IMG/VR virus record: IMGVR_UViG_2923302340_000009
Span: 1-54,993 of that record
Length of the DNA: 54,993 nucleotides
Direction: 5' to 3' (one strand)
From: a virus
Lineage: Duplodnaviria > Heunggongvirae > Uroviricota > Caudoviricetes
Part shown: one piece after another, positions 19,682 to 49,075 of the stretch
How the letters are laid out: each line of letters starts with the position of its first letter
Numbering within the stretch: position 1 is the first letter of the stretch
Position numbers and translations under genes: made by a program
Notes under the pieces: model-generated
Database searches by the model: none
Told to the model about the DNA's origin: nothing
The model's input: the letters and a program-made list of their open reading frames with translations, nothing else

Positions 19682-20707
19682 TTACGCCAGTTGTACAGAC
19701 ACGAACTCATCAGGGTCAGCCAGCAGCATCAGCGGTGCTGACTGAATCATGGTGAACTCACGCGCCGGGTCGCCGGTGGTCACCCAGTTTTTCGGGTAAC
19801 GGGCAGAGGCGTTAATGCCTTCACGCTGTGCGTCCGCATCCTGAATGCAGCCATAGGTGCGCAGACCGCGTGCCTGAGTGTTCCCCAGCACCATCGTGTT
19901 GTCCGGCAGGAAGTTCTTTTTGACGCCGTTTTCCACGTACTGTCCGGAATACACGACGATGGCCACATCGCCATACATTCCCTTATAAGACACCGCTTTG
20001 CCCAGGTCTTTTACCGCTGTCTCCAGCTCGGAATGAGAGCCGCGACGGGTATCCAGCTTCTCCTTGACGGCCTTGAAGGAACGGAACAGCGCCCAGCCTT
20101 TCGGATCAAACACGATGATATTCACCACACCGCTGGCGTTCAGCGCGTAGGCTTCGATATCGTCGGTCGGGTCATACGTGGACTTGTCACGCTTGCTCCA
20201 CTCCGTGCCGCCGGACTGCGTGATGTTATTCGCCGCACTGCGGCCCATATCCACCTCAACCGGATCGAAGGCTTCACCGGTCATGGTGTATTTGCCCTTA
20301 AGCACGGCAGAAACTGCCTGCATCTCTTCGACCTGGGCAATCGCCAGATTTTCATCCAGCATATTCTGCCGAATAATACGGCGACGACGGTAAGCCGGGT
20401 CAGCCAGGTTCTGCGGATCTTCATCCGGCAGGCGACGCAGGGTCATCTGCGGATTCACCTCATGCTTGGGTTTGACATAACCCGGCGTAAATTCAGAGGT
20501 GGAGCCGCCACGGGATCGGATAACCTCACCGGAAACAATCGGCGAAACGTACAGCGCCATGTTTACCAGTCCCGGAATTTGTGAGAGATAGACTTTCTCC
20601 GTGGTGAAGGGATAGCTCTCACGGAAAAAGAGACGCAGAAACAGCGGATCAAACTTAAATTTCTGCTCATTTGCCGCCAGCAGTTGGGCGGTTGTGTACA
20701 TCGACAT
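19682..20707 (-). CDS. E: major capsid protein E
   Basis: Matches lambda gpE from MSMYTTAQLLAANEQ. Confidence 0.95.
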   Translation of the reverse strand: MSMYTTAQLLAANEQKFKFDPLFLRLFFRESYPFTTEKVYLSQIPGLVNMALYVSPIVSGEVIRSRGGSTSEFTPGYVKPKHEVNPQMTLRRLPDEDPQNLADPAYRRRRIIRQNMLDENLAIAQVEEMQAVSAVLKGKYTMTGEAFDPVEVDMGRSAANNITQSGGTEWSKRDKSTYDPTDDIEAYALNASGVVNIIVFDPKGWALFRSFKAVKEKLDTRRGSHSELETAVKDLGKAVSYKGMYGDVAIVVYSGQYVENGVKKNFLPDNTMVLGNTQARGLRTYGCIQDADAQREGINASARYPKNWVTTGDPAREFTMIQSAPLMLLADPDEFVSVQLA

Positions 20708-20762
20708 AAAAAAATCCCGTAAAAAAAGCCGCACAGGCGGCCTTTAGTGATGAAGGGTAAAG

Positions 20763-21104: not shown

Positions 21105-22424
21105 TTACACTGGTGTGTTCAGCAAATCGTTAACGGCATCAGATGCCGGGTTACCTGCAGCCAGCGATGCCGGTGCCCCCTGCATCAGACGATCCAGCGC
21201 AGTGTCACTGCGCGCCTGTGCACTCTGTGGTGCTGCGGCCAGAATGCGGCGGGCCGTTTCCACGGTCATACCGGGGGTTTCTGCCAGCACGCGGGCCTGT
21301 TCTTCGCGTCCGTGAGCCTCCTCACAGTTGAGGATCCCCATAATGCGGCTGTTTTCTGCCGCAACCGCAGCGGTGATCTGCGCGTTCACGTCCGGCTGCG
21401 CCGCGCTGGCGTTTTCGCCCTCCGTCGCTGGCACCACGTCAGTAACGTCAGCCTGCGAAGCAGTGGCTGAAACAGTTGTTGATTGAGTCTCTTTGGTCAT
21501 TCGCCCTCCTGAGAGACGGGATTTACGTGCATCCAGTGCATCACGCATAACGGTGATCGCATCGGTACTGTTAACAAGTTCATCAGCCAGTCCGGCATCA
21601 ATGGCCTCCTGACCGCTGTACACTGCAGCCTCGGTATCCAGCACAGCCTGCACAGACAGGCCGGTATATGCCGACACCTTCTGCGCAAACATCTGGCGGG
21701 TTGCGTCCATCCGGGACTGCAGTGTCTCCCGGACGTCATCCGGAAGATGGCTGTAGGGATTGCCATCCACCTTATGGCTGCCGCTGTAAATCAGCGTGAT
21801 TTCCACGCCCTGTTTCTCCAGCGCAGCACCGTAATTGCTGTGAGCCATCATGACGCCGATGGAGCCTGTCCGGGCGGTCTGCGTGACCAGACGCCGGGAG
21901 GCGGCGCTGGCAAGCAGCTGACCTGCACTGCAGTTCATGTCGTTGGCCAGCGCCCATACCGGTTTTATGTCTCGCACACGGGCGATGATGTCAGCACAGT
22001 CAAATGCTCCCGCCACCATCCCGCCCGGTGTGTCCATATCCAGCAGAATGCCGTCCACCATCGGATCGCTGGCAGCCTGTTGCAGACGGGCGATAATGCC
22101 GTTGTAACCGGTCATCCCCGAGTACGGCTGCAGCGCCCGCGTCCGGCTGACCAGCGTACCGGACACCGGCAGCACGGCGATGCCGTTCATGACCTGATAG
22201 CTGCGGGCCTGTCGTGGTCCGTCATCATCACCGGATATCGCCAGCGCCGCGGGTGCCTCTCCGGCAGTCAGGCTGTCGCCGGATACTGCATCCGTCAGGC
22301 GGCTGATCCCAAGCTGGCCTGCAAGCGCACAAAAGAAAACCCGCGCATAGGCGGGTTCAAGCATCAGCGGCTCATTAAAAGCCATGCTGGCAATATGCGG
22401 GAGATTACGCAGCTCTGCTGTCAC
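21105..22424 (-). CDS. C: head protease/minor capsid protein C (with in-frame scaffold Nu3)
   Basis: Matches lambda gpC from VTAELRNLPHIASMAF (GTG start); overlaps 3' end of B. Confidence 0.9.
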   Translation of the reverse strand: MTAELRNLPHIASMAFNEPLMLEPAYARVFFCALAGQLGISRLTDAVSGDSLTAGEAPAALAISGDDDGPRQARSYQVMNGIAVLPVSGTLVSRTRALQPYSGMTGYNGIIARLQQAASDPMVDGILLDMDTPGGMVAGAFDCADIIARVRDIKPVWALANDMNCSAGQLLASAASRRLVTQTARTGSIGVMMAHSNYGAALEKQGVEITLIYSGSHKVDGNPYSHLPDDVRETLQSRMDATRQMFAQKVSAYTGLSVQAVLDTEAAVYSGQEAIDAGLADELVNSTDAITVMRDALDARKSRLSGGRMTKETQSTTVSATASQADVTDVVPATEGENASAAQPDVNAQITAAVAAENSRIMGILNCEEAHGREEQARVLAETPGMTVETARRILAAAPQSAQARSDTALDRLMQGAPASLAAGNPASDAVNDLLNTPV

Positions 22425-23184
22425 TCTTCTCCTCCTCTGTTGATTGTCGCAGTCCGGATTCAAATGCCGCAGCCGCCCAGGCGGGCGGTTTAAGACCGGC
22501 TGCACGGCGCTCCATCGTTTCACGGACCTGCTGGGCAAAAATTTCCTGATAGTCGTCACCGCGTTTTGCGCACTCTTTCTCGTAGGTGCTCAGTCCGGCT
22601 TCTATCAGCATCACCGCTTCCTGTACTTCTTTCAGACCATCGATGGCCATACGACCGGAGCCTATCCAGTCACAGTTCCCCCAGGCACTGCGGGCTTCCT
22701 GAAAGCTGAAGCGCGCTTTTGAAGGTAACGTCACCACGCGGCGAACGATGGCCTCTTCCAGCCAGCACAGAAACATCTGGCTCGCCTGACGGGATGCGAC
22801 GAATTTTCGCCGCCCCATAAAGTACGCCCACGACTCGTTCGCGCTGGCCCGTGCCGTGGAGTAGCTCATCTGGGCGTAATTCCGGGAAAGCTGCTCATAC
22901 GAGACACCCAGCCCGGCAGCGATATACCGCAGCAGTGACTGCTCAAACACGGAGTAGCCGTTATCCGTATCCTGAGCCGTCTGCAGGTTCAGTGAGTCAC
23001 CCGGCATCAGGTGCGGCACTTTTGCGCCTCCAAGCCGGACCGGCGCTGCGGCGTAATACGCGGCAATTTCACCAATCCAGCCGGTCAGCTTGTCCCGCTG
23101 CTCCTGACTGTTCGCGCCCAGAATAAAATCCATCGCTGACTGCGTATCCAGCTCACTCTCAATGGTGGCGGCATACATCGCCTT
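22405..23184 (-). pseudogene. B: portal protein B, C-terminal segment (codons 277-533) separated from N-terminal segment by the inserted island
   Basis: MYAATIESELDTQSAMDF... to end matches lambda gpB C-terminus; preceding codons KA retained at the junction. Confidence 0.9.
23172..23184. repeat. left copy of 13-bp direct repeat (catacatcgcctt) bounding the island; putative att core
   Basis: Same 13-mer with one mismatch (cataaatcgcctt) at 34071..34083; lambda portal sequence is continuous across one copy. Confidence 0.7.
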
Positions 23185-23256
23185 TATGAAAAGACAGGAA
23201 AAAATAAAATTTAAAAACAGTACATTACGAATGCTCAGACCTATCGTTTAAAGGAG

Positions 23257-23280
23257 TCGCAATACACACTGCAATACACG
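23257..23280. repeat. two tandem copies of GCAATACAC motif near left island end (putative integrase/AlpA arm sites)
   Basis: tcgcaatacacac tgcaatacacg; same motif three times at right end 33894..33947. Confidence 0.5.
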
Positions 23281-23619
23281 ATTATTTATAAGATGAGCGG
23301 CATCCGTCATAAAGCTGGTGGATGCTTTTTCTATGCATATATGCACAGTTTTAGTGGGCGTTAATGTCGATATAGGGATCCCCATATCGAGATTGGATAC
23401 CTGGCTTTTTTCCGGTTAACCTTTAATCAGGCTGGTGGGCTTTACCTGTTTTGTATGAGTGGTCATCATGACCATGTCATAACAAAAACCCCATATTCGT
23501 GGTTTTTCTGTGTCGGGCTATTCTGTCGTTGCTGTGCTGATTTGGCTGGTGGGCTGAATCATCATTACGGCGATGCAGCTATGTAGACGTTCCGGCCTCC
23601 TCAAATTGAGGATTGTGGA

Positions 23620-23980
23620 AGAATCAATGGGTTAGTCTTACTTTCCCGACATCCCCCAATGGGGGTTTTCGAAACAATCAATAGCTTAGGCTTACTTCCC
23701 CGATTTCCTGCATTGCAGGTTTTCGAAATAATCAATGGGTTAGGCCATCGTGCAATTTTGCACTTTGCCAGCCAGCGCAATGTCGCGTTATCAGTCCTCA
23801 GATGTGAGGGATGTAGCCAGCTTTTCCCCCAGTGGGGGATATCCAGCACCGACGGCTTAACTGTGCGTGCCAGCACAAGGTAGCCTTGAACTACTTACTG
23901 CATCCCATCTTACAGGCCGTGCCTTCCTGCTTAACTTTTTGCAATGCAACAAGTCAGCCAGCGCAATTTTGCGTTATCGG
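23620..23980. repeat. array of about 54-bp periodic repeats (aatcaatRgSttagg) each followed by a short GC palindrome and ttttcgaaa
   Basis: Three units starting near 23622, 23676, 23730; palindromes cccccaatggggg, cctgcattgcagg, gtgcaattttgcac, cccccagtggggg; second family cagccagcgcaatNNNgcgttatc twice. Confidence 0.5.
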
Positions 23981-23993
23981 GAATATCAGCAAG

Positions 23994-24275
23994 TTACCGC
24001 CGCAATCGTTCCGGCTTCTTCCACTGGTAAGTATTTTTCGCGCTCTCCCTCCGTTGTTGAGAAAGGCGACGATATGCCAGCAACTCAAGGACTCTTGTTC
24101 GTATGTTGCGCATATCCACGCCGTTAAGCTCAATACCGTCACGGCGCATCACCTCAGCCACTACACGCACATAATTATCTGCGGTCACGCTGTCCGGCTG
24201 CGTGGCCTGTTCGTCATGCTGCTTGCTGATTCCACAAGCACGGCGGATTAATCGCAGTATTTCGGATTCAGTCAT
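23994..24275 (-). CDS. hypothetical protein (island packaging module)
   Basis: 93-aa ORF 11 nt downstream of TerS-like gene; no recognisable family. Confidence 0.45.
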   Translation of the reverse strand: MTESEILRLIRRACGISKQHDEQATQPDSVTADNYVRVVAEVMRRDGIELNGVDMRNIRTRVLELLAYRRLSQQRRESAKNTYQWKKPERLRR

Positions 24276-24286
24276 AGCGTACTACG

Positions 24287-24829
24287 TTACTTATCTTTAT
24301 TCGGCTGCAACTTATCCGGTACGTTTCCGGCAGTTTCCATCAGATAATCGGACAGCATCAGCGGTATGTTTTCGTCAAGTTTTGCGCATGCGTTACAGGC
24401 TCTGATAACTTCTTTTTTCAGTCCATCCAGCATAGACGGCTTCATGTCGGGAAACTTCCTTGTCATGGCAAGCGGCAGGCTGTCCATGATTGAAGAAATC
24501 TGACTCGCCAATTTTGAAAGCACGTATATACAAAACGCTGTATCAATAACGTCGCCGCGTTCGCGCTCGTTTTTAAGCTCCTGCGCCTCTGCCTGTGCTG
24601 TCAGCAATCTGATCCTGACTCGTAGGAGTTCATCATCATCAATCTCGCCTTTGTCGTCTGTAATCTGGTTAATTGCATTGCTAACCCGATTGTCTATTAC
24701 GCTGGCAACATCATAAAACGCCTCGCGGCCTTTACGTTCAACGGGAGTCACTCCCCACTTGTCGAACGCTGTCGCACTTACACGGCAGCTTTGCGCCATG
24801 TTTTTTTTGTTCATCAGGTGCGATTTCAT
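24287..24829 (-). CDS. terminase small subunit-like protein (lambda Nu1 homologue) encoded by the island
   Basis: Aligns with lambda Nu1 core LTRAQADAQELKN...AFCTFVLSRIAGEIASILDGIPL; ATG at 24829 preceded by GGGGA; lies downstream of island cos. Confidence 0.75.
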   Translation of the reverse strand: MKSHLMNKKNMAQSCRVSATAFDKWGVTPVERKGREAFYDVASVIDNRVSNAINQITDDKGEIDDDELLRVRIRLLTAQAEAQELKNERERGDVIDTAFCIYVLSKLASQISSIMDSLPLAMTRKFPDMKPSMLDGLKKEVIRACNACAKLDENIPLMLSDYLMETAGNVPDKLQPNKDK

Positions 24830-24940
24830 CAATATCCCCACTTAAGTAATGTTTCAGGTTGGTGTATTGACTTTATCTTTTCCTTTTTATTCATAGAGAT
24901 AGAGCGAACAACAAAACCACCACCAGCACCCGAAAAAGGC

Positions 24941-25010
24941 TCATAAATAGCGAAAACCCGCGAGGTCGCCGCCCCGTAGCCTACCGGATCACCGGAAAGG
25001 ACCCGCCAGC
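24941..25010 (-). other. island cos site with canonical lambda-type cosN (GGGCGGCGACCT) and lambda-like cosQ-side flank, divergent cosB side
   Basis: Plus strand aaatagcgaaaacccgcg AGGTCGCCGCCC cgtagcctaccggatcaccggaaaggacccgcc (cosN 24963..24974); paralogous to prophage cos at about 37700. Confidence 0.75.
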
Positions 25011-25030
25011 CAGAGCGGGCCCTAATTTCA

Positions 25031-25414
25031 TCAACCAATCAGCTTATAGCGACCATCCCGTGCATTGCGGCGTACACGCTCAATCTTGAGGCATAGCGCC
25101 GCATCTGGCTTTTTTGGGACAGGTACGCGGCAATATTCAGAAGCGCGAGGAATATTATTTATCCAGTCGATCACTTCACTTAAATACCAGGCCTTACGCC
25201 CTTCCGTAACCTGCACACGCTCCGGGAACTCTCCACTAGCCTCAAGGTTTAGCAGTGTACGACGACTCAGGGTTGTAATTTCCATCACCTGATTCATATC
25301 AACAAGGCGCTCGCTTAAACACATTTTGTCAGCGATAGCTTTTAATTCCTCTACAGCTGGATTCGGGTACATCATTTCGGCAATTGGCTTAAGGTCATTG
25401 TAATCATTCTGCAT
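25031..25414 (-). CDS. AlpA-family HTH protein (second copy, in packaging module)
   Basis: Motif ITTLSRRTLLNLEASGEFPERVQVTEGRKAWYLSEVIDWI; strong SD AGGGGGA. Confidence 0.65.
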   Translation of the reverse strand: MQNDYNDLKPIAEMMYPNPAVEELKAIADKMCLSERLVDMNQVMEITTLSRRTLLNLEASGEFPERVQVTEGRKAWYLSEVIDWINNIPRASEYCRVPVPKKPDAALCLKIERVRRNARDGRYKLIG

Positions 25415-25425
25415 TGTATCCCCCT

Positions 25426-25767
25426 TTACACACGAGCCAGCGGCTGAACAGAAATACCTGAGCCAACAAACGCTGCAACCTTTACTGACAGTTCTTTAAC
25501 AGACTCAGGCCAGTTCAGAGCATCAACATTTAAGACACCTGTCTTATAGACCTGAGCCTGTGTTTTTTTCGCGGTGTCGATTTGTACAGCGGAAACATAA
25601 ACCGCTTTACCTACGCTCGAACCATCCCATACCACCAGTGCACCTGTTGCATCTTCCTGCATCAGTGGCGTAAATGCAGGAATTACCCCTTTATTAGCTG
25701 AAAATATCCCCAGCGTAGTCACCAGTGCTTCAGTGCCAGCCATGAGTTCAGTGTAATGAGTAGCCAT
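25426..25767 (-). CDS. head decoration protein, lambda gpD-like (island paralogue)
   Basis: 113 aa alignable to lambda gpD (PAFTPLM...VWDGSS...); SD AGGGGGAG. Confidence 0.75.
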   Translation of the reverse strand: MATHYTELMAGTEALVTTLGIFSANKGVIPAFTPLMQEDATGALVVWDGSSVGKAVYVSAVQIDTAKKTQAQVYKTGVLNVDALNWPESVKELSVKVAAFVGSGISVQPLARV

Positions 25768-25776
25768 TGCTCCCCC

Positions 25777-26823
25777 TTAGCCAATGCGAACGGTAACAAA
25801 ACGATTGATGCGGGCCGGTATTGGCTGTGGTGCTGAATGTGTCTGCACATATTCAATAGCCGGATCACCAGGCACAATATAGTTTTTCGGTGCAAGTTCG
25901 GCTTTAGTCAGCCCCATTCGGATTAGCTCCGGATCCTGAATACCGCCATAGGCGACAATCCCCTGAAGAGCCGTATTGCCAAGCACCATCAAATCAGGAT
26001 CAAGGAAATGTTTTTCTGTTCCGTCCTCGTCGGTATAACGCCCGCTGTAAACAACAATCGCAACATCGCCCATATACCCTTTAAAACTCACCGAATCACC
26101 AAGGTCTTTAAGGGCCGTTTCCAGTTCGGAATTAGAACCACGACGGGTATCCAAAGCCTCTTTTATCGCTCTGAATGAACGGTATTTCTTCCATACATTA
26201 CCACCCATAATGATGATATTAGTGACGCCCTCACTAAATTCTGCGTAGCTCTCAATATCATCATTTGGATCAAAAGTTTCTTTATCCTTACCTGACCACT
26301 CAGTACCGCCAGACTGAGTGATGATATTTTGTGGTTTTATATTCCAGTCCAGCTCATAACGTTCAATACCATCGCCCTCAATGATATTTTTCCCCGTTGT
26401 GATTGCCTGAACAGCAAGCCATTCAATACGTGCACGAATAGCTTTAGCCTGATTTACAATCGCCTGTTTAACTTTAATATTACGCGCCCCAAAAGCATTG
26501 TATTGCTCAGGTGACACACCAGCAGGGCGCACAGCTAACTTATTTGGATCAATGCTGCTTTTCGGCTTCATATAACCTGGACGAATTGTTTTTGATTCGT
26601 ATCCCTCATCTCGTGAAACTTTACTGCCCACCATAGGAGAGCAAAACGCCGCGATCGGGATATTTGGATCGTCGATCGTATCAAGAATAATGTCTCTCGA
26701 TTCAAACATTACCGAGCGAGTGAAAAACAAACTGGTAAACAACGCATTTAATTTTTTTTGCACATCTTCAGCATTAGCCACCTGCACAAGCTGTGTAGGC
26801 GAATATAAATCAACCATACTCAT
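25777..26823 (-). CDS. major capsid protein, lambda gpE-like (island paralogue)
   Basis: Roughly half identity to lambda gpE by eye across C-terminal two-thirds (QSGGTEW...LDTRRGSNSELETA...VAIVVYSG); start at MSMVDLYS with SD AAGAGGA. Confidence 0.8.
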   Translation of the reverse strand: MSMVDLYSPTQLVQVANAEDVQKKLNALFTSLFFTRSVMFESRDIILDTIDDPNIPIAAFCSPMVGSKVSRDEGYESKTIRPGYMKPKSSIDPNKLAVRPAGVSPEQYNAFGARNIKVKQAIVNQAKAIRARIEWLAVQAITTGKNIIEGDGIERYELDWNIKPQNIITQSGGTEWSGKDKETFDPNDDIESYAEFSEGVTNIIIMGGNVWKKYRSFRAIKEALDTRRGSNSELETALKDLGDSVSFKGYMGDVAIVVYSGRYTDEDGTEKHFLDPDLMVLGNTALQGIVAYGGIQDPELIRMGLTKAELAPKNYIVPGDPAIEYVQTHSAPQPIPARINRFVTVRIG

Positions 26824-26988
26824 CCTCTTTACATTCATTACAAATAATTGTGAATATATTCTATTACCGATGTCTGCTATGCGAACACATGCAACCAAGT
26901 GCAATGTTGTATAAAATATGCCGTAACAACTTCAGTGCTGATAATTCGTGTTAATGTATTTACTTCCTTTGGTCGGGATTTATGTAGC

Positions 26989-27028
26989 ATGCCGGAAAAT
27001 CTATTTTTTTCCGGCATCTTTTTGTTTG
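26989..27028 (+). terminator. plus-strand hairpin with T-tract between island ssb and capsid genes
   Basis: atgccggaaa / tttccggcat 10-bp stem followed by ctttttgtttg on plus strand; both neighbouring genes are on minus strand. Confidence 0.35.
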
Positions 27029-27034
27029 CAGAAT

Positions 27035-27457
27035 TTAAAACGGTATATTATCGCCGTACGGATCATCATTCCCCGACTGTTGTTTTGCCCTGTTCAGTGC
27101 GTCAGTGGCCTGCCCCTGCTGGCCTTTTTTGCCGCCCGGTCGCGCCGTTCGCGCACTGATTACGCTGTCTGCGATAACCTGCCAGCCCCGCCGCGTTTCG
27201 CCGTTCTGGCCTGTCCACTGGCTTACCTGCATGTTACCCGCCACGCTCACCAGTTCGCCTTTGTGGTGTTTTGCCAGTGCGTCGGCCTGTCTGCCAAACG
27301 CCAGGACGGATAACCACATCGTCGCCGTTCCGTCATCTGCCTGGCTGCACGGCAGGGGAACCGCCATACTCGCCATCGCCATTTGTGTCCCTTTGCTGGT
27401 GGTCTTTAACTGCGGGTCAGCCACCAGCCGCCCGTAAGCCGCTATCTGTGCTGTCAT
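27035..27457 (-). CDS. ssb: single-stranded DNA-binding protein (SSB-like)
   Basis: 140 aa with Gly/Gln-rich linker and acidic C-terminal tail DDPYGDNIPF typical of SSB. Confidence 0.75.
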   Translation of the reverse strand: MTAQIAAYGRLVADPQLKTTSKGTQMAMASMAVPLPCSQADDGTATMWLSVLAFGRQADALAKHHKGELVSVAGNMQVSQWTGQNGETRRGWQVIADSVISARTARPGGKKGQQGQATDALNRAKQQSGNDDPYGDNIPF

Positions 27458-27768
27458 GCTGTCTGCTCTCCGGTTTTAACATTGATGGTTGTCACCTGTT
27501 CCGCTTCGGCAATCTCCCGTTCTGTCAGCGTGGCAAAGTTTGCCGCTGCTGTGGTCATAAATGCGCTTATCAGGTCGGGATGTTCCTTCGCGTATCCTGC
27601 CCGTGTGTGGTGGTCTATCGCTTTGATTGCCACCTTTAAGGAAAGCTCTGTCATGTCTAACGCTTTATATTTTGCCTGTGTTCTGTCTCTGCGAATTTTG
27701 GTCATTTGTCGCCCCTGATTCATGTTTTCGGCTGGCATGTTTGTTAAGTGATTTTTATGTATGCGCAT
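27454..27768 (-). CDS. hypothetical protein translationally coupled to ssb
   Basis: 104-aa ORF; stop overlaps ssb ATG (ATGA). Confidence 0.45.
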   Translation of the reverse strand: MRIHKNHLTNMPAENMNQGRQMTKIRRDRTQAKYKALDMTELSLKVAIKAIDHHTRAGYAKEHPDLISAFMTTAAANFATLTEREIAEAEQVTTINVKTGEQTA

Positions 27769-27819
27769 TTATTTTCACCCCCCCTCGTTTAAAAAGTTTT
27801 TAGTTGTGCCTCCCCCCCT

Positions 27820-28045
27820 CTACCCATCTACCCGAATGCTCATCATGTCAGTAATGGCGCCGCTTTCAGCGGGTAGATAGCTTTTTTGACTCCTCTACCT
27901 GCCGTCTACCCTGCTACCTGAAACTGATAAAATCAGGTAGAAGAGGTAGAGAGCTTTTATTAGCCTTCTACCTAGCCCTATATCCACTTATCATGTTGAA
28001 TAATATGCATTTATTTCGTTCAGGTAGATGGGGTAGATGGCTTTT
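27820..28045. repeat. iteron cluster (GGTAGA / TCTACC motifs, about 12 copies in both orientations); putative island replication origin
   Basis: ctctaccc, atctaccc, gggtagat, aggtagaagaggtagag, ggtagatggggtagatgg immediately upstream of primase gene. Confidence 0.7.
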
Positions 28046-28053
28046 ACAAAAAA

Positions 28054-29808
28054 TTATAAAAACGCGTCGCAATCGTCTGTTGTAATTGCGTTGGTCTGCG
28101 TTACTCCCTTAACTTTTCGCGTAATATATTCATGCCCGTAAACTTTCGCCGCTGGCTTCATGGCCTTGCTGAACTCAGCCACGTTTAGCGGTTTGCTCCT
28201 GCCCGCGTATGCCATAAACGCCAGATAGACGCGGTAAAGGCTGTTCCTGGTCGTGTACTTCACTGAATCACCACCGCCACCCATCATCAGGCCGCGCGCT
28301 TCCTCCAGAAAATTCAGGAACTGGCAAAACTCAATAACCGGATCCGTCTGTTGCTTTATTGCCAGTGCTTCATCACCGTCACGCTGTTCCAGTAGTAAAG
28401 CCCGTGCCTTCTCAGGGTCGGTAAAGTTCGCCAGCAATCGGCGGATAATAACGGGGATTTCAGCCGCAATCTTTTCCGGTAGCTCCCTGTCTTTTTCGGC
28501 CTCACTGACGATATTGTCGAAACGGAAAATCACGCGACGACGTGCCACACCTCCGGCCCGTTCGGTGAATATCATCGGGTTGTTGTTGGTCGCCAGCACC
28601 ACCGCCCTGATTACCGCCGTGAAACGCTTTTCATATTTCGGGTTAATTTCCACGGGGTCGCCGCCTGTGATTTTCTTGATGCCCGTTCCTTCGCCTGTAT
28701 ATTTCGGCTGGTCAGCCAGGACGATAAGACGACTCCCGACAACCTGCGCACGTCCACCAGCATCATCAAGCGATGTCATTTCAGCGCTTACCGTGTTCTG
28801 TTTCCCTGCCAGAAGGCTGGCTATGTGTGTGAATGTACTTTTACCGCTCCCGCCGTCTCCGGTGGCCTCAATAAACATCTGCCAGTCGTACCGGTTCGCC
28901 ATAATCATGTACAGCGCGGCACATATACGCATCATCTTGCGCGGGTCTTTTCCGGCTGCGTGCTCAAGCCATTTATGAAAGTTTGGCGCGTTATCGCGGA
29001 TGTTCTCCCCTGGTGCTGGTGGCGTGTACTCAATGCCGTTGTGCGTGGTGATCCAGTTCTCCGGCGTGTGCGGGGAAAATTCCCCCGTTTTCAGGTCAAG
29101 CGCACCATTGGCGAACGGCAGCAAATCGCCAGACGGCTCGCCCATTGGTTCGGCAATAACTTTTAACGCTTCCACGGCGTTATTGATTACGCGCTTGCTG
29201 AAAGTGGCCCTGTGCTCTGAATAGATCGCCACCATTTCGCGGCTAAGTTCCATTGTGCTGACCGGACACCATACCCCGCCGCGCCATACGTGAACGATTT
29301 CACTTTCAGGATGTACGCAAACGCCATCAAAGCGATCGGCAAGCAACTGCGCGCGCTCACTGTCCGCCATCTGCGAAAGTTGCGCCTTTTGCTTTACCGG
29401 AAGCTCAATGACCAGACCATCAGAAAGATTCTGGCGTTCACGGGCCAGATATTCGCGCCAGGTCTGCACCTCCTGGCCGTGCATACCCTCAGGATAAAAA
29501 TTTGCATCCTGTACGCCTGCTGCCGCCAGCTTCTGACCAATCGCCTTTATCATTACAGGCGCAAGATATCCGGCCCTGTATATGCGTGCTGATTTTCGGC
29601 CTTCCGGCACAATTTGCAGATTATCCAGTTCGGATAGCTGCTGCTCCCCAAGCCACACAGGAGGCTCATTATCTCCGGCCATACGCGCATCATGTTCCTG
29701 CCATTGTTTCGCGTGTGCCCAGGCATCACTACCCGCAAAAATAATTACTTCTGTTCCTTTGTGTTTTATGCCGCGTGACTGCTGTTTTACGTTCGGTGCC
29801 AGTTTCAT
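28054..29808 (-). CDS. primase-helicase (P4 alpha-like replication protein with P-loop NTPase domain)
   Basis: 584 aa; Walker A GDGGSGKST; adjacent iterons; translationally coupled to upstream ORF. Confidence 0.75.
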   Translation of the reverse strand: MKLAPNVKQQSRGIKHKGTEVIIFAGSDAWAHAKQWQEHDARMAGDNEPPVWLGEQQLSELDNLQIVPEGRKSARIYRAGYLAPVMIKAIGQKLAAAGVQDANFYPEGMHGQEVQTWREYLARERQNLSDGLVIELPVKQKAQLSQMADSERAQLLADRFDGVCVHPESEIVHVWRGGVWCPVSTMELSREMVAIYSEHRATFSKRVINNAVEALKVIAEPMGEPSGDLLPFANGALDLKTGEFSPHTPENWITTHNGIEYTPPAPGENIRDNAPNFHKWLEHAAGKDPRKMMRICAALYMIMANRYDWQMFIEATGDGGSGKSTFTHIASLLAGKQNTVSAEMTSLDDAGGRAQVVGSRLIVLADQPKYTGEGTGIKKITGGDPVEINPKYEKRFTAVIRAVVLATNNNPMIFTERAGGVARRRVIFRFDNIVSEAEKDRELPEKIAAEIPVIIRRLLANFTDPEKARALLLEQRDGDEALAIKQQTDPVIEFCQFLNFLEEARGLMMGGGGDSVKYTTRNSLYRVYLAFMAYAGRSKPLNVAEFSKAMKPAAKVYGHEYITRKVKGVTQTNAITTDDCDAFL

Positions 29809-30104
29809 TTTTTACCTCTGAATCCGTTAATCATGGTTTTCATTTTCTGGATATTTCCCCACGCTTTTTCCCTGCTGATGGGCTTACTGCGGGGTGCGGC
29901 ATATACCAGGGAAAAATCACGCCGGAACTGATAAACAGGCATCACGCAGTCATAGCTATACCCCTCACGGCGGTAAGTGATGCGCCGTTCTGCCACGCCT
30001 TTAATCGTTACCGTGCCGCCGTATTTATCGCGGTAAATATCGCCGTTCATAAATTCAGGTCGAGCGGGGCCGCTGGCAATAAAGCCAGAATTTTTCATTT
30101 CCAT
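29805..30104 (-). CDS. hypothetical protein
   Basis: 99-aa ORF whose stop overlaps primase start. Confidence 0.45.
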   Translation of the reverse strand: MEMKNSGFIASGPARPEFMNGDIYRDKYGGTVTIKGVAERRITYRREGYSYDCVMPVYQFRRDFSLVYAAPRSKPISREKAWGNIQKMKTMINGFRGKK

Positions 30105-30121
30105 ATTATTTATTCCTCGAC

Positions 30122-30343
30122 TTAACTCGACTTATTTGATAGCAGGGCACTATTTATTGCGTCATTGAGTTTTTCTGCTGATTCATCAATAAGTGACAAC
30201 AGGCCATAAGCAATATTTGCATCTTCATTGTCATTTATGCAATCAAGCCACATATTTAATATTGCTTTTGCTGAATTATTTAAAGTTAATGAACTTTCTG
30301 CACATGCTAACAATTTAAAAAAGACTTCCCGTTCTGTATTCAT
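30122..30343 (-). CDS. hypothetical small protein
   Basis: 73-aa ORF in tightly packed three-gene array. Confidence 0.4.
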   Translation of the reverse strand: MNTEREVFFKLLACAESSLTLNNSAKAILNMWLDCINDNEDANIAYGLLSLIDESAEKLNDAINSALLSNKSS

Positions 30344-30535
30344 TTAATCCCCCACCAGCTTACTTTCTTCCTCAATCAAAAAACTAGCGACACTTCCCGA
30401 AAGACGCGCCAGTAGGCTCGCCAGTGCGGATATATCAGCATCTGTAATTTTGTTCGGGTATACCTCAAGAAGGCGGCAAATAATTTCTGTCTGGTGCGCA
30501 CGTTCAGCGGCTTCGTGTAATGTAATTTCCTGCAT
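30344..30535 (-). CDS. hypothetical small protein
   Basis: 63-aa ORF abutting neighbours. Confidence 0.4.
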   Translation of the reverse strand: MQEITLHEAAERAHQTEIICRLLEVYPNKITDADISALASLLARLSGSVASFLIEEESKLVGD

Positions 30536-30720
30536 TAATGCACCTCTTTTAATTCATACACTGCTGAAATAATGACTTGTGATAAGCCATATTCTGATGA
30601 TTCGCTTCTCACCGCAGCAATAGCCGTCTGAACATTAACAGCCTTCACATTCTGAGCGATACCAATTGTGTGGCCTATTGGGTTAACAGCTCGGGCAAAT
30701 ACACGGAAGGTTTTAAGCAT
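30535..30720 (-). CDS. hypothetical small protein
   Basis: 61-aa ORF with SD GGGAG; first gene of minus-strand array. Confidence 0.4.
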   Translation of the reverse strand: MLKTFRVFARAVNPIGHTIGIAQNVKAVNVQTAIAAVRSESSEYGLSQVIISAVYELKEVH

Positions 30721-31001
30721 GACTCACTCCCTGGCGGATTTTTGCAGCGAATACAGCAACACAACCGGACGGGCAACGGCTACGCGCTTCGCGTTCCGTC
30801 CAGGCGGTTACGTGGATGATTTGAGATTCTCCGGCACTCAGTGCCAGAAAACGCCACACAAAGGCCGTTTGTGTGTGTACAAGGTGTGGTATATGATTTA
30901 CAGCAACCATAACGGCTCCTAGTTTACGTTGTTGGTTAGACGCCCCGTATGTGTTCCCAGCACTGCGGGGCGTTGCTCTTTGTATTTCAACAATCCTTTC
31001 G

Positions 31002-31034
31002 GTGTGTTTCATGTTATGAGCGCATGAAACACAC
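31002..31034. promoter_or_regulatory. 12-bp perfect inverted repeat (gtgtgtttcatg N9 catgaaacacac) in divergent intergenic region; putative operator
   Basis: Lies between minus-strand small-gene array and plus-strand gene at 31101; half-site gaaacacac recurs at about 31071. Confidence 0.5.
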
Positions 31035-31100
31035 GTCAAGGCTTTTTGTATTTCTTTTTTTGTGTATACTGAAACACACCGATGATTAGGAGTTTCAGAA

Positions 31101-31406
31101 ATGGCAACGGCTAACAAAAACGCAAAATCACAACTGACAACTGTCAGAGTCCCACTAGATGTTATGCAAGGGATGGAATCCGTTAAGCTGGACGGTGAAA
31201 GCAATGCCGGATTTATCGTAACCGCCATGCGCGGAGAAATAGCCCGCCGCCAAGCAGAAGGCAGCGGAGAAAATCCCCTTGTGTCGTCACTGGATGCCCT
31301 GGCTAAGGTCGAACAAATCGGCATCAAAGCAGCCGAGGAGATCGGGCAACTCGTCACCGTCGCGCGTGAAGAACTCCAGCGACGCAAGGTCAAAGAGCAT
31401 GAATAG
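31101..31406 (+). CDS. hypothetical protein, candidate island regulator
   Basis: 101-aa ORF with SD AGGAG; divergent from small-gene array; downstream of operator-like repeats. Confidence 0.5.
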   Translation: MATANKNAKSQLTTVRVPLDVMQGMESVKLDGESNAGFIVTAMRGEIARRQAEGSGENPLVSSLDALAKVEQIGIKAAEEIGQLVTVAREELQRRKVKEHE

Positions 31407-31463
31407 CCAATATCAGCGCCATAGTTTGAGGAACGCAGGCGCATTGCTTTACAGGACAGCACC

Positions 31464-31643
31464 ATGAGCGACACAGAATCAACCAAAACACCATCACCAA
31501 CTCGTAAGAGACGACGCAAAAATATAGCGCATGAACATGAATCAGAAAGATTCGCACCTTGTTCGTTTGCTCTTGAGAAATTCCTTAAAGAGCACAGGAA
31601 AAAGCTCTCGTTGCAAACCTTGGAACGAACCAAATCTGACTGA
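31464..31643 (+). CDS. hypothetical small basic protein
   Basis: 59-aa ORF (not in track, below 60 aa) MSDTESTKTPSPTRKRRRKN...; followed by terminator. Confidence 0.3.
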   Translation: MSDTESTKTPSPTRKRRRKNIAHEHESERFAPCSFALEKFLKEHRKKLSLQTLERTKSD

Positions 31644-31709
31644 TCACATTGCCCACCAGCCGCAAATGTGGCATTGTTGGTGATGCTTTTGTTTTCCCTT
31701 GTTCCCACT

Positions 31710-31740
31710 GGCGACCCTTTTGCGGTCGCCTTTGTTTTGT
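31710..31740 (+). terminator. rho-independent terminator for plus-strand island genes
   Basis: ggcgacc-cttttgc-ggtcgcc hairpin followed by TTTGTTTTGT. Confidence 0.55.
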
Positions 31741-32318
31741 CACTGAATGCGGTTACCAAAGTAAAACTCAGGCTGATATTCACGTATCAGCGTTTTTTCT
31801 TCTTCCTCCAGCTCACGCTTTTTGCGCTTACATGCCTGTAGCTCCCTCCCCTTCTCGCTGGCACTTATTTGATATTGCTCTTTACGGCGGGAAAAATCCT
31901 GTAATGCACCCCACGGGATACCATAAGTCCCCGTTTTTCTGATACCTGGTATCACATTTCTGAATACCCAGTTACTGAAACGATGAGCAAATGTGCCAGG
32001 CGTCGTTGCTTTGCGGCTGCGGGCTATTAGTTTGTAGAAACCTGACTCAGAGATAATTCTCATATTCTGATTTCCTCCTGGGGTGTAAGTTAAATTTACT
32101 CCCTTTTCATCATCATCAAGCATCTGCAACGCCGTACGCGAATTGGTTAGTTCCAGCGCAGCACAAACATCTTTTGCAACAAACCACGGATCGCCGTTCA
32201 GATACACCACACGAACGTTCACACTATCAAAGCGCAGAACGACGAGATCACGAATATCGCAGAATTTTTTCACTGGACGAGCGTACCCCTTGCCCGTCAC
32301 GGCAATATTTTTATTCAT
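31740..32318 (-). CDS. BRO-N domain protein (antirepressor-like)
   Basis: N-terminal VVLRFDSVNVRVVYLNGDPWFVAKDVCAALEL resembles Bro-N/KilA-N family. Confidence 0.65.
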   Translation of the reverse strand: MNKNIAVTGKGYARPVKKFCDIRDLVVLRFDSVNVRVVYLNGDPWFVAKDVCAALELTNSRTALQMLDDDEKGVNLTYTPGGNQNMRIISESGFYKLIARSRKATTPGTFAHRFSNWVFRNVIPGIRKTGTYGIPWGALQDFSRRKEQYQISASEKGRELQACKRKKRELEEEEKTLIREYQPEFYFGNRIQ

Positions 32319-32334
32319 CGCGTTTTTACCTTAT

Positions 32335-32361
32335 AGACAAAAAACCCCTCGTGATGAGGGG
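32335..32361 (-). terminator. rho-independent terminator downstream of alpA
   Basis: On minus strand cccctcatcacgagggg followed by TTTTTTGTC. Confidence 0.55.
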
Positions 32362-32374
32362 CATTATTTACTGG

Positions 32375-32632
32375 TTATTGCTGTTTTGTTTTTCCAGGTT
32401 TCCATCCAGGATGCCACTCACCACGGATCCATGCCTGAACCTCTGAAAGTCGATACCCTGCAGCACGTTCACCGATCTTGATACGTCGCGGGAATTTACC
32501 TGCCTGCTCCATTTTCCAGCGTGTTGAGTTTGCCAGCGTGGTAAGTGCTATGCACTCTTTTTCACGAATGAACCGATCAATGTCCTTCATTGTGCGCAAA
32601 TCGTTTTCATCAACAAGAGAATAAATTGCCAT
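32375..32632 (-). CDS. alpA: AlpA-family transcriptional regulator/excisionase-like protein
   Basis: 85 aa; ...FPRRIKIGERAAGYRLSEVQAWI motif; immediately downstream of integrase. Confidence 0.75.
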   Translation of the reverse strand: MAIYSLVDENDLRTMKDIDRFIREKECIALTTLANSTRWKMEQAGKFPRRIKIGERAAGYRLSEVQAWIRGEWHPGWKPGKTKQQ

Positions 32633-32633
32633 A

Positions 32634-33875
32634 TCACACCACCTCTTTATTAAGCTCGATAACGTTGTTGTTAAATCCTGCTATCGTATTAAGGTAATTA
32701 ACCCACATATTAAGCACCTCAAGTTTTTTCTTTATATGCCTGCTTTTATTGTAAACACCAGCAACCCCTTTCACTTTATGACCTAAAAGAAGTTCGACAA
32801 TATAAGGATCCGCCCCCATATCATTAAGCGTAGTGGAAAATGTGCGCCTGAAATCATGTATGCACCACAAGCCATTAGTATCATGACCAAGACGCCTGCA
32901 TATTCTGTTTGCAGCCCCTGTTATTGTCGCCCTTTGCAAAGCACAACCGACAACATAACCGCGATTTTTTGTTTCTGCGTAAAGATTAACGATCCATTGT
33001 TTTATTCCGTCAGGAACAGGCCTTACTATAGCCTCCTTGTTTTTGCTGTGCTCTTTTGGGACTGTCCATACCCAGTTTTTTAAATCCCATTCGTCCCAGG
33101 TGGATAGCCTCGCCTCCTGCTGTCGGCAACCAAACACCAGGCAGATAACCATTATTCTTCGGTTATATATTGATGACAGAGTTAGCAAATTATTACCGTA
33201 AGCATAAGACCATACATCAGCGGTTTCATTGATATTAAGAACGCGATCCCTTATACCGGATGAGCGCCCGACATAACTTACGTTAATATCTCCAAAGGGA
33301 TCGCACGCGATGTATTGCCTGACGCGACAAAAACGCAACGCCTGTTTGATATCAAGAAAAATTGCACCAGACATAACAGGCGCATTTTTTTTGATCCTGT
33401 CAAAGACGGTAAGCCATGTGTGTAATTTGCACTGTTCTATAGCCATATCACCGATATAGGGGAAGATATGCTTTTCAAATCGTTTTATTAAATATTCATG
33501 CTCTTTTCTGGCTGTTGTGGCGTGATTGTCGTACCAGTAAAACAGCGCATCCCTTACGGTCACTGGTTGCATAGTTTTTTCGGCAGCAAGTTTTATTTGC
33601 CTGCGGGGGTCCAGATTTTCAGCCAGCCATTCACGGCACTGATCACGCATGCGCCTGGCCGTTGCAAGAGACATGTCAGGATAGCGACCAAGTGTAAGCC
33701 ATACCGGAGGGAATTCCCTGCCACCAAGACGATAGTAAAAAACAAAGCTGATCCCCCCAACCATGCTTACACGCACAGACAACCCGCGCCCATCCGCTAT
33801 TGTTTTTTGTTTGTCCTGCCGTTTTCCGACAAGACTCTTTAACAGTTTGTCACTGAGTTTGTTTTCAATAGCCAT
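32634..33875 (-). CDS. int: P4-type tyrosine integrase
   Basis: 413 aa; P4-like N-terminal arm-binding region and C-terminal HDFRRTF...LLGH...Y catalytic region; adjacent to island end. Confidence 0.85.
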   Translation of the reverse strand: MAIENKLSDKLLKSLVGKRQDKQKTIADGRGLSVRVSMVGGISFVFYYRLGGREFPPVWLTLGRYPDMSLATARRMRDQCREWLAENLDPRRQIKLAAEKTMQPVTVRDALFYWYDNHATTARKEHEYLIKRFEKHIFPYIGDMAIEQCKLHTWLTVFDRIKKNAPVMSGAIFLDIKQALRFCRVRQYIACDPFGDINVSYVGRSSGIRDRVLNINETADVWSYAYGNNLLTLSSIYNRRIMVICLVFGCRQQEARLSTWDEWDLKNWVWTVPKEHSKNKEAIVRPVPDGIKQWIVNLYAETKNRGYVVGCALQRATITGAANRICRRLGHDTNGLWCIHDFRRTFSTTLNDMGADPYIVELLLGHKVKGVAGVYNKSRHIKKKLEVLNMWVNYLNTIAGFNNNVIELNKEVV

Positions 33876-33893
33876 TAAAAGCCCTCAAGAGAT

Positions 33894-33947
33894 TTGCAAT
33901 ACACACCCATCCCGATCGCCAATTTGCAATACACATTGCAATACACA
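33894..33947. repeat. three direct copies of TTGCAATACACA next to integrase start (putative arm-type binding sites)
   Basis: Copies at about 33894, 33924, 33936; same motif at left island end. Confidence 0.55.
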
Positions 33948-34023
33948 AAACCGCGAAAAACTGGAAGGGTGATGAACGGTCATCAAAAGCATGGAAAACG
34001 ACATTCCAGACGCAGCAAGGGTT

Positions 34024-37004
<2,981 letters not shown>

Positions 37005-48281: not shown

Positions 48282-48385
48282 AACAACCTCCGTGGTTAAT
48301 TTGAATCAAGATTAAAACTATGGTTGTTTTTAGTCAACAACCATTTTCGCTTGATGGAATAAAACCTTGGTTGTACATTTGGACT
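48282..48385. promoter_or_regulatory. rightward-operator-like region between cro-like and cI-like genes with AACAACCAT half-sites
   Basis: ATGGTTGTT-N7-AACAACCAT perfect inverted repeat plus AACCTTGGTTGT; divergent gene starts on both sides. Confidence 0.6.
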
Positions 48386-49075
48386 ATGAAAACAACACTC
48401 TCAGAAAGACTTAAAGAAGCCAGATTAGCGCGAGGCCTTACACAAAAGGCGCTTGGGGATTTGGTCGGGGTTAGCCAGGCTGCTATTCAGAAAATCGAAA
48501 CAGGGAAAGCTAATCAAACAACTAAAATCGTGGAGATCGCGAACGCTTTGGGTGTGCGCGCAGAATGGTTATCTTCTGGCGTTGGAAATATGTCAGACAG
48601 TACAGTGCAACCAATACAATCAACTGTCAGCCATTCCAAATACTTCAAGATTGACGTTCTTGATATAGAAGTCAGTGCTGGGCCGGGAGTCATCAACCGT
48701 GAGTTTGTAGAAGTTCTACGCTCGGTTGAGTACTCGTTTGACGATGCTCGTCACATGTTCGATGGTAGGAAGGCGGAAAATATCCGCATCATTAACGTGC
48801 GTGGTGACAGCATGTCAGGAACGATCGAACCAGGTGATCTGCTGTTCGTTGATATCACAGTTAAATCTTTCGACGGTGATGGTATCTATGCGTTTCTGTA
48901 CGACGACACAGCCCATGTAAAGCGCCTGCAAATGATGAAGGATAAGCTGCTGGTCATCTCTGATAACAAAAGCTACTCACCGTGGGACCCGATCGAGAAA
49001 GACGAGATGAACCGGGTGTTCATCTTCGGTAAGGTTATTGGGAGCATGCCGCAGACATATAGGAAGCATGGGTAG
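48386..49075 (+). CDS. CI-like repressor (HTH + LexA/S24 peptidase domain)
   Basis: HTH TQKALGDLVGVSQAAIQKIE; S24-like C-terminal domain with Ser (GDSMSG) and Lys (HVKRL); start at internal ATG 48386. Confidence 0.8.
   Translation: MKTTLSERLKEARLARGLTQKALGDLVGVSQAAIQKIETGKANQTTKIVEIANALGVRAEWLSSGVGNMSDSTVQPIQSTVSHSKYFKIDVLDIEVSAGPGVINREFVEVLRSVEYSFDDARHMFDGRKAENIRIINVRGDSMSGTIEPGDLLFVDITVKSFDGDGIYAFLYDDTAHVKRLQMMKDKLLVISDNKSYSPWDPIEKDEMNRVFIFGKVIGSMPQTYRKHG

Follow-up and report, generated by a model that had tools for sequence, protein, structure and literature searches.

The window analyzed here is the complete 54,993-nucleotide virus record IMGVR_UViG_2923302340_000009, and the gene under study, bro, encodes a 192-residue protein with a Bro-N domain. 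We found that bro belongs to a helper-embedded phage-inducible chromosomal island (HE-PICI) that interrupts the portal gene of a lambdoid prophage, and that, judging from sequence comparison, it is a real gene, expressed as protein in evolutionary terms. Tentatively, we read Bro as a non-essential DNA-binding accessory regulator of the induced phase of the satellite, which would be made together with alpA or by read-through of helper late transcription. Databases and the literature already cover bro, its Bro-N domain, and its position in a described class of elements: bro is recognizable by routine annotation, and the element class with its 'Bro zone' was described in 2023. Satellite Bro proteins are common, and their function represents a real gap in how Gram-negative PICIs communicate with their helpers.

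The initial annotation had placed a Bro-N protein at 31740-32318, and an open reading frame (ORF) with identical coordinates was recovered. Pfam Bro-N (PF02498) matched residues 34-124 over its entire length (profile positions 1-96 of 96, E 4.9e-20, 72.4 bits compared to a curated gathering cut-off of 25.6 bits), so the possibility, raised in the same annotation, that a profile search would find neither Bro-N nor KilA-N can be set aside. RefSeq names the product 'BRO-N domain-containing protein' (WP_001038675.1). The top PHROG was 2593, 'anti-repressor' (E 3.8e-85, profile positions 1-192 of 255), and the remaining PHROG matches fell mainly on the Bro-N region. The structure was modeled with AlphaFold2 from a 67-sequence alignment (mean pLDDT 81.7, pTM 0.75); a single-sequence model (pLDDT 39.6) was discarded and the alignment-based model used instead. 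The model consists of a disordered basic N-terminus (residues 1-25), a beta-alpha domain with the Bro-N fold (~26-130), and two long helices (136-155 and 160-181). When it was compared with viral models by Foldseek, 111 Bro-N proteins matched at E<=1e-3, and the fold comparison assigned it a Bro-N/APSES-like alpha-beta fold, as found in DNA-binding domains. The protein is basic overall (pI 9.7), as is each of its segments. Judged from the modeled fold and the charge, Bro is predicted to bind DNA. A PDB sequence search returned chance matches only, and no NCBIfam model matched the protein.

Pfam detected Bro-N alone in the whole protein, with no ANT/KilAC, P22_AR_C, or KilA-C module. The 60-residue C-terminal tail, searched by itself, matched no Pfam family even at E 10, and tblastn found no match to it in 50,697 phage records. 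The relatives of Bro in real phages cover only residues ~24-135, with up to ~60% identity. Some relatives in the alignment carry ANT/KilAC or P22_AR_C; the partner-domain count was not used quantitatively, as mostly short single-domain sequences had been selected for this alignment. A more distant counterpart is the N-terminal domain of baculovirus BRO and CpGV Orf22 (PDB 4ye7), which shares 16% identity with Bro, belongs to a eukaryotic virus, and is followed by unrelated C-terminal parts.

Comparison with two natural alleles yielded dN/dS values of 0.12 and 0.16 for the whole gene and 0.08-0.10 for its C-terminal third. By this measure, the entire bro gene, including the tail, is under purifying selection. 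A full-length bro copy was present in 182 of 5,426 complete Escherichia coli genomes (55 at >=99% identity), and 6,590 index blocks of a public assembly collection contain the exact protein. The island sequence at 27500-34100 is 99.9% identical to that of E. coli EC93 and other strains. Alleles with 95% and 87% protein identity reside in HE-PICIs inserted in the large-terminase gene of Stx-type prophages, next to a different integrase and AlpA, and another allele was found in islands within a Terminase_1-type terL gene, which carry two alpA genes and a DUF927 primase. Off-target copies of this island type (L090, L095, L096, L115) adjoin chromosomal genes (the dhaKLM region and a lactate permease gene) and not a portal gene.

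Beyond E. coli, one genome per species was scanned. Full-length relatives, as a rule reaching residue 183-191 and sharing 49-63% identity in the best segment, were found in 26 loci from Providencia, Aeromonas, Leclercia, Yersinia, Kosakonia, Enterobacter, Xenorhabdus, Rouxiella, Lonsdalea, Budvicia, Serratia, Gilliamella, Frischella, and Proteus. A co-oriented integrase lay 2-3 kb upstream in 22 of these 26 loci, with alpA detectable between the two genes in 16. The full-length family thus sits downstream of a co-oriented integrase, and usually of alpA, in gammaproteobacterial PICI-type satellites. Taken together, the locus scan and the tail searches suggest that Bro-N plus tail is an old component of PICI satellites without a counterpart in sequenced phages. 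It is extremely improbable that bro is decaying or functionless cargo. Damaged copies do occur, as only a remnant persists in strain CFT073, the copy of strain GZEC065 is frameshifted, and ~115 of the 297 complete E. coli genomes with a bro match hold <80% of the gene. Against this stand the low dN/dS over the whole of bro, the conservation of the full-length family in more than 12 genera, and the abundance of the exact protein in the assembly collection.

The claim that bro is encoded by a satellite island was borne out, as the gene lies in a 10.9-kb element with integrase, alpA, primase, capsid, and small-terminase (terS) genes (Table 1). The element is bounded by an 8-bp core, ATCGCCTT, at 23177-23184 and 34076-34083. 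The N-terminal part of the interrupted portal gene reads on through 15 foreign codons to a stop codon, and joining the two halves restores the reading ...VKA(I/M)YAATIESELD.... At the 99.9% identical EC93 locus, RefSeq marks both portal halves as partial. The island is co-oriented with the interrupted portal gene and the helper late operon. Its minus-strand gene order is integrase, alpA, and bro, followed, after a pair of genes on the opposite strand, by the replication operon (the Icd-like gene, three small ORFs, DUF4222, and the D5-type primase) and a late zone with genes for a single-stranded DNA-binding protein (SSB), a lambda-E-like major capsid protein, a decoration protein, a helix-turn-helix (HTH) protein, and TerS. 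The HE-PICI gene set (int, alpA, and primase) is present, and tail and lysis genes are absent. The element falls under the HE-PICI definition of Tommasini, Mageeney & Williams (2023, PMC10111431), and its integrase protein is found again at portal sites in many genomes. Because the island brings no replacement for the portal C-terminus, the helper cannot produce portal protein before the island excises, which is a known feature of HE-PICIs (PMC10111431).

Table 1. Features of the island, its control signals, and the interrupted helper gene in the window
Feature	Coordinates	Strand	Evidence
Helper portal gene (lambda B type), C-terminal part	22405..23176	minus	frame runs on as ...KAMYAATIESELD...; EC93 annotation
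Whole helper-embedded PICI, 10.9 kb	23177..34083	minus	split portal frame and gene content
D5-type primase/helicase, replication zone	28054..29808	minus	Pfam D5_N, DUF5906, Pox_D5
Icd-like small gene, first gene of the replication operon	30713..30910	minus	NCBIfam NF033153, E 1.2e-17
Control region: promoter and three operator copies	31002..31079	unstranded	promoter scan, motif count
YlcI/YnfO-family gene, 101 aa, ribbon-helix-helix-like N-terminus, convergent with bro	31101..31406	plus	NCBIfam NF041551, E 1.6e-17
59-aa ORF downstream of the YlcI-like gene	31464..31643	plus	PHROG 21027, E 5.2e-15; annotated in related islands
Intrinsic terminator that closes the convergent plus-strand unit; the bro stop codon is 10 nt away	31710..31730	plus	terminator scan
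bro, 192-aa Bro-N domain protein	31740..32318	minus	ORF list; ATG at 32318, stop codon 31740-31742
Shine-Dalgarno-like AAGGT, ~10 nt upstream of the bro ATG	32328..32332	minus	read from sequence
Intrinsic terminator GCCCCTC-ATCAC-GAGGGGT then TTTTTG, between alpA stop and bro start	32344..32362	minus	terminator scan
alpA (Phage_AlpA), excisionase/transcriptional activator family	32375..32632	minus	Pfam PF05930, E 5.4e-14
Tyrosine integrase of the island	32634..33875	minus	Pfam Arm-DNA-bind_3 and Phage_integrase
Helper portal gene (lambda B type), N-terminal part	34084..34905	minus	translation; RefSeq partial portal in EC93

The placement of bro corresponds closely to what has been described for this class. 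HE-PICIs were divided into Integration, Bro, Replication, and Late zones, the second of which contains 'domain-swapping DNA-interactive proteins' whose role is unknown, and one portal insertion site was named B:Phage_portal_2:241 (PMC10111431). Like the island studied here, the HE-PICIs and Gram-negative PICIs of that work combine int-alpA, a Bro zone, primase/SSB, and captured late genes, and are co-oriented within a prophage late gene (PMC10111431). In their Bro zones, a Bro-N gene directly follows alpA (PMC10111431), and in the window bro, the third and final member of the int-alpA-bro unit, likewise sits, as a Bro-network gene of a HE-PICI, between the integration zone (alpA) and the replication zone (icd-primase operon). 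Some described Bro zones also contain C4/isrK-type immunity RNAs (PMC10111431), whereas none was detectable here; an Rfam scan of 22000-35000 gave no such RNA and nothing at E<=1.

The signals flanking bro suggest how its expression is timed. In each of the 37 E. coli loci checked, a terminator between alpA and bro preceded the bro ATG by 23-25 nt; these loci fall into five upstream sequence classes. Its stems vary by class (GCCCCTC/GAGGGGT, ACCCCGCGT/ATGCGGGGT, AGCCCCGC/GCGGGGTT, and AACCCCGCA/TGCGGGGTT), and the retention of the terminator with at least four different stems argues for selection on the structure. The Shine-Dalgarno-like element reads GAGGT in other bro alleles. A separate bro promoter between the terminator and the ATG was ruled out, as there is no space for one and no consensus match. 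Strong expression of bro should therefore need read-through of the terminator that lies directly upstream. At the other end of the gene, the hairpin that terminates the convergent unit is conserved in position in the related loci that were aligned.

In the E. coli islands, the terminator after alpA would keep bro nearly silent in the lysogen. Bro would be made when terminator-resistant transcription crosses this point, either Q-modified late transcription of the helper or heavy AlpA-driven transcription. Because the island has the same orientation as the helper late operon, Q-modified polymerase should cross both the terminator and bro. It would enter the island from nu1-A-W-portal and pass through int, alpA, the terminator, and bro, and the same read-through would continue antisense over the convergent ribbon-helix-helix (RHH)-like repressor gene into the replication operon. 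At this embedded, co-oriented position, read-through would probably mean helper late transcription, after helper induction. Tommasini et al. hypothesized that late transcription of the helper extends into HE-PICIs (PMC10111431). Once made, Bro would act by binding DNA on satellite or helper targets, and not by titrating the helper CI.

The accessory nature of bro is indicated by an island that appears to function with only a remnant of it. The CFT073 island contains int, alpA, primase, and the capsid and decoration genes, lacks terS, and keeps only the equivalent of Bro residues 57-107. By fit to the published description, this island is presumably EcCICFT073, which was excised, replicated, and transferred after helper induction (PMC6092414). 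EcCICFT073 is activated by AlpA, and AlpA overexpression alone triggers it (PMC6092414). The remnant in CFT073 and the frameshifted copy in GZEC065 together indicate that bro is accessory and non-essential.

Several points weigh against Bro as a DNA-binding accessory regulator gated in this manner. No DNA target of Bro was found in the analysis, and the sequence is also compatible with a protein-protein function. Phage proteins with a Bro-N domain commonly carry the annotation antirepressor. The only clear set of operators in the island follows the RHH-like gene (see below), its motif being independent of bro type. Read-through by Q-modified polymerase is itself something that we infer, and off-target chromosomal island copies would lack helper late transcription altogether. 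Furthermore, the alpA-bro terminator is absent at the homologous position in distant genera, where bro in many loci starts within ~20 nt of the upstream stop codon. Terminator gating was thus rejected as a universal feature and is limited to the E. coli lineage at most; the distant loci instead argue for co-expression of bro with the alpA unit as the general rule.

The first alternative is that Bro is an antirepressor that binds the CI-type repressor of the helper, so that the satellite induces or senses its helper in the way that P4 epsilon acts on the P2 repressor. This role, to which the initial annotation had pointed, is somewhat disfavored, and we consider it unlikely. It is suggested by names in the first place: the best PHROG families of Bro are labeled 'anti-repressor', and many database copies are named antirepressor. 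The label comes from PHROG and RefSeq names only, and in the literature searched, BRO proteins of PICIs were named 'putative antirepressors' or 'regulators' only, without experiments. A satellite that derepresses its helper nonetheless has a precedent in P4 (PMC10111431; P4 annotation), where epsilon is the textbook example, and a satellite that depends on a prophage late gene for attachment would presumably gain from controlling that prophage. Broad-range antirepressors also exist, for example P22 Ant.

The architecture of Bro speaks against an antirepressor role. The protein lacks ANT/KilAC and P22_AR_C and has only the DNA-binding-type Bro-N fold. Its homology with Ant-type phage proteins (PHROG 2593, 130, 2899, and 245) lies in the common Bro-N core; in the 480-position PHROG 130 'Ant' profile only positions 165-304 match, and the 60-residue tail has no match in phage records. 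Bro has no similarity to anything in the P4 genome, as tblastn against the whole of it, including epsilon and eta/kil, gave chance matches only (E>2). In contrast to phage antirepressors of the canonical Ant type, which belong to a phage immunity (immI-like) region and are often controlled by antisense RNA of the c4/isrK type, bro follows int-alpA in the integration module of a satellite. The upstream terminator, moreover, implies that bro would be made mainly once helper late transcription has begun.

Comparison of helpers that harbor the same island also argues against a CI-directed antirepressor. The surrounding prophage is lambdoid, occupies the DLP12 locus, and carries nu1/A/W, portal, C, D, E, tail, Q, lysis, and CI/Cro regions. 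Its CI-like protein combines an XRE HTH domain with a LexA/UmuD-type S24 domain, and because of this self-cleavage domain the CI should be SOS-cleavable unaided. Islands with >=99.9% nucleotide identity over 27500-34100 were compared across helpers. The CI of the helper in strain MS 85-1 is 98% identical to that of the window, whereas the helpers in EC93 and 20Y000092 have a CI with 82% identity (70% over the matched N-terminal part) and a clearly different Cro-like protein. In strain 210205630 (L124), no CI homolog was detectable in the region examined. The CI comparison (48320-49075 in the window against L007 5752-6444 in EC93) indicates that the helper prophages are mosaic around an identical satellite. 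In addition, a protein identity of 50-63% is maintained in Bro from Aeromonas to E. coli, unlike fast-evolving immunity specificities, and the CFT073 island that fits EcCICFT073 works with the bro remnant only.

Other features of these helpers were noted. In strain 210205630, a ren fragment adjoins insertion sequences, and this helper fits the 'abandoned HE-PICI' situation of Tommasini et al. (PMC10111431). EC93 has a SIR2-family gene beside CI, and the interval in the window contains no ORF of >=100 residues, the two regions not having been compared directly. The EC93 major capsid gene (L001 6183-7208) is a RefSeq pseudogene with an internal stop codon, and the corresponding ORF of the window (19682-20734) is uninterrupted. 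The capsid and decoration genes of the island could matter for helpers with a defective capsid gene.

A known satellite protein offers a working model for a DNA-binding Bro. CapR of the PLE satellite of Vibrio cholerae is a DNA-binding protein of the Bro/KilA/T5orf172 'network' that represses the late (capsid) promoter of the helper (Netter et al. 2021, PMC8096241). The likeness to Bro is one of description, and no homology is claimed: CapR derives from a homing-endonuclease DNA-binding domain and not from Pfam Bro-N, and its helper is a lytic phage. A bolder version of our reading is that terminator-gated Bro, made only under antiterminated late transcription of the helper, acts back on a prophage, either as a broad antirepressor or as a CapR-like repressor of head genes. 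We regard this as distinctly unlikely. If it were true, Bro in the first case would induce co-resident lambdoid prophages, and in the second it would repress the helper head genes in favor of the captured capsid, decoration, and terS genes of the island. Either would constitute a new cis-coupled layer of satellite-helper control.

The opposite-strand gene next to bro appears to define a control module of its own. The YlcI-like gene is transcribed away from a near-consensus sigma-70-like promoter, TTGACG-17-TAACAT (31039..31011, minus), which faces the icd-primase operon. The motif TGAAACACAC occurs three times around this promoter (31002-11, 31025-34, and 31070-79; 0.12 copies expected), and two of the copies are arranged as an inverted repeat that spans the -10 element. 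The same operator geometry is found in related islands with other motifs (CTGGAATCCAG, GGTATTCAC, GTGGGCCACAC, GTGTAAGACA, and GTGCAAGTCAC). The operator comparison comprised 30999-31406 of the window, L002-L005, and L098-L112; in 22 loci, the motif tracked the N-terminal sequence of the YlcI-like protein in six classes and with no exception. It was independent of AlpA type, as L002 and L003, which have an identical AlpA, differ in motif. The YlcI-like gene and its covarying triple operator therefore have the appearance of a repressor/operator immunity module in Gram-negative PICIs, and the gene itself is a candidate island repressor, as far as such sequence covariation can tell. It resembles the global master repressor of Gram-negative PICIs that was called 'unclear' in 2018 (PMC6092414). 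In the literature that could be searched, no paper pairs a PICI with ribbon-helix-helix, and this control region may matter more than bro itself.

The control module bears on the idea that Bro is an antirepressor of the island's own YlcI/YnfO-like RHH repressor, so that transcription of the alpA unit would lead to derepression of the icd-primase operon. We consider this very improbable, even though the two genes are convergent neighbors and the triple operator over a strong sigma-70-like promoter suggests that the replication operon has to be actively derepressed. A single identical Bro protein (P0070) adjoins three different YlcI/operator classes, another (P0034) adjoins two small RHH-like proteins without obvious mutual sequence similarity, and conversely one YlcI class pairs with two different Bro central segments. 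Besides, AlpA alone induces EcCICFT073 (PMC6092414), and the CFT073 island has no intact Bro. Bro was likewise ruled out as the reader of the TGAAACACAC operators, because the motif follows the YlcI-like gene and P0070 stands beside three operator classes. With the motif independent of Bro type, and given the P0070 and P0034 pairings, Bro is implausible both as operator reader and as a specific partner of the island repressor. In the P0034 islands, the YlcI slot is occupied by a 58-residue RHH-like protein or by an uncalled ~64-residue ORF next to a GTTACGTACGTAC palindrome (L089 4080-4533; L090 4229-4673). The slot thus seems, from these sequences, to be swapped between small repressor-like families.

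Bro could instead assist Int and AlpA as an accessory DNA-architectural factor when the island excises from the prophage late gene or integrates there. The strict int-(alpA)-bro synteny across many genera and the DNA-binding fold are in line with such a role, as are the GCAATACACA repeats at both ends of the island, which must bind some protein. However, Int has its own arm-binding domain, so the end repeats are more simply explained as Int arm sites. Islands that share a Bro central type can differ in integrase and AlpA type (window versus L003), and EcCICFT073 excises (PMC6092414), whereas the CFT073 island has no intact Bro. We therefore consider a role in recombination quite improbable.

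A further possibility is that Bro is aimed at the host or at competing phages, as a factor that perturbs growth or division, interferes, or excludes (compare P4 Kil/Eta and phi11 Gp07). The P4 genes epsilon and eta/kil lie, like bro, between an alpA homologue (vis) and the primase gene; bro takes the place of eta/kil after the alpA homologue, and eta was assigned to the 'Bro network' (PMC10111431). The gene is accessory and often lost, and the terminator would keep a harmful product silent. The phi11 protein Gp07, with a Bro-like and a KilA domain, is reported to inhibit the growth of E. coli (PMC5944126). Its toxicity is assigned to the KilA and not the Bro domain (PMC5944126), and Bro lacks KilA-C. 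Moreover, bro has no sequence similarity to the eta region of P4, and no PADLOC defense model matched bro or its small neighbors. A host- or competitor-directed function is rather unlikely, and an accessory DNA-binding regulator remains our tentative preference.

Some additional sequence elements were observed in the island. A 356-residue GTG-started ORF (30713-31783, minus) lies antisense to the YlcI-like gene, also spans the control region, and overlaps homology-supported genes on both strands; it is most likely spurious. The GCAATACACA(C) repeats occur close to each end of the island, with three copies just beyond the int start (33892-33947) and two at the far end (23254-23280). They are probably arm-type sites of Int and may correspond to the 'doubled DNA motif' of Tommasini et al. 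(PMC10111431). They were rejected as the crossover, since joining there fails to restore the portal gene and joining at the ATCGCCTT core does restore it. Three tandem 54-bp repeats (23592-23753), each with a short palindrome (CCTCAAATTGAGG, CCCCCAATGGGGG, and CCTGCATTGCAGG), lie near the island end, ~550 bp downstream of the small-terminase gene of the island, and could be terminase-binding (cosB-like) sites or origin iterons.

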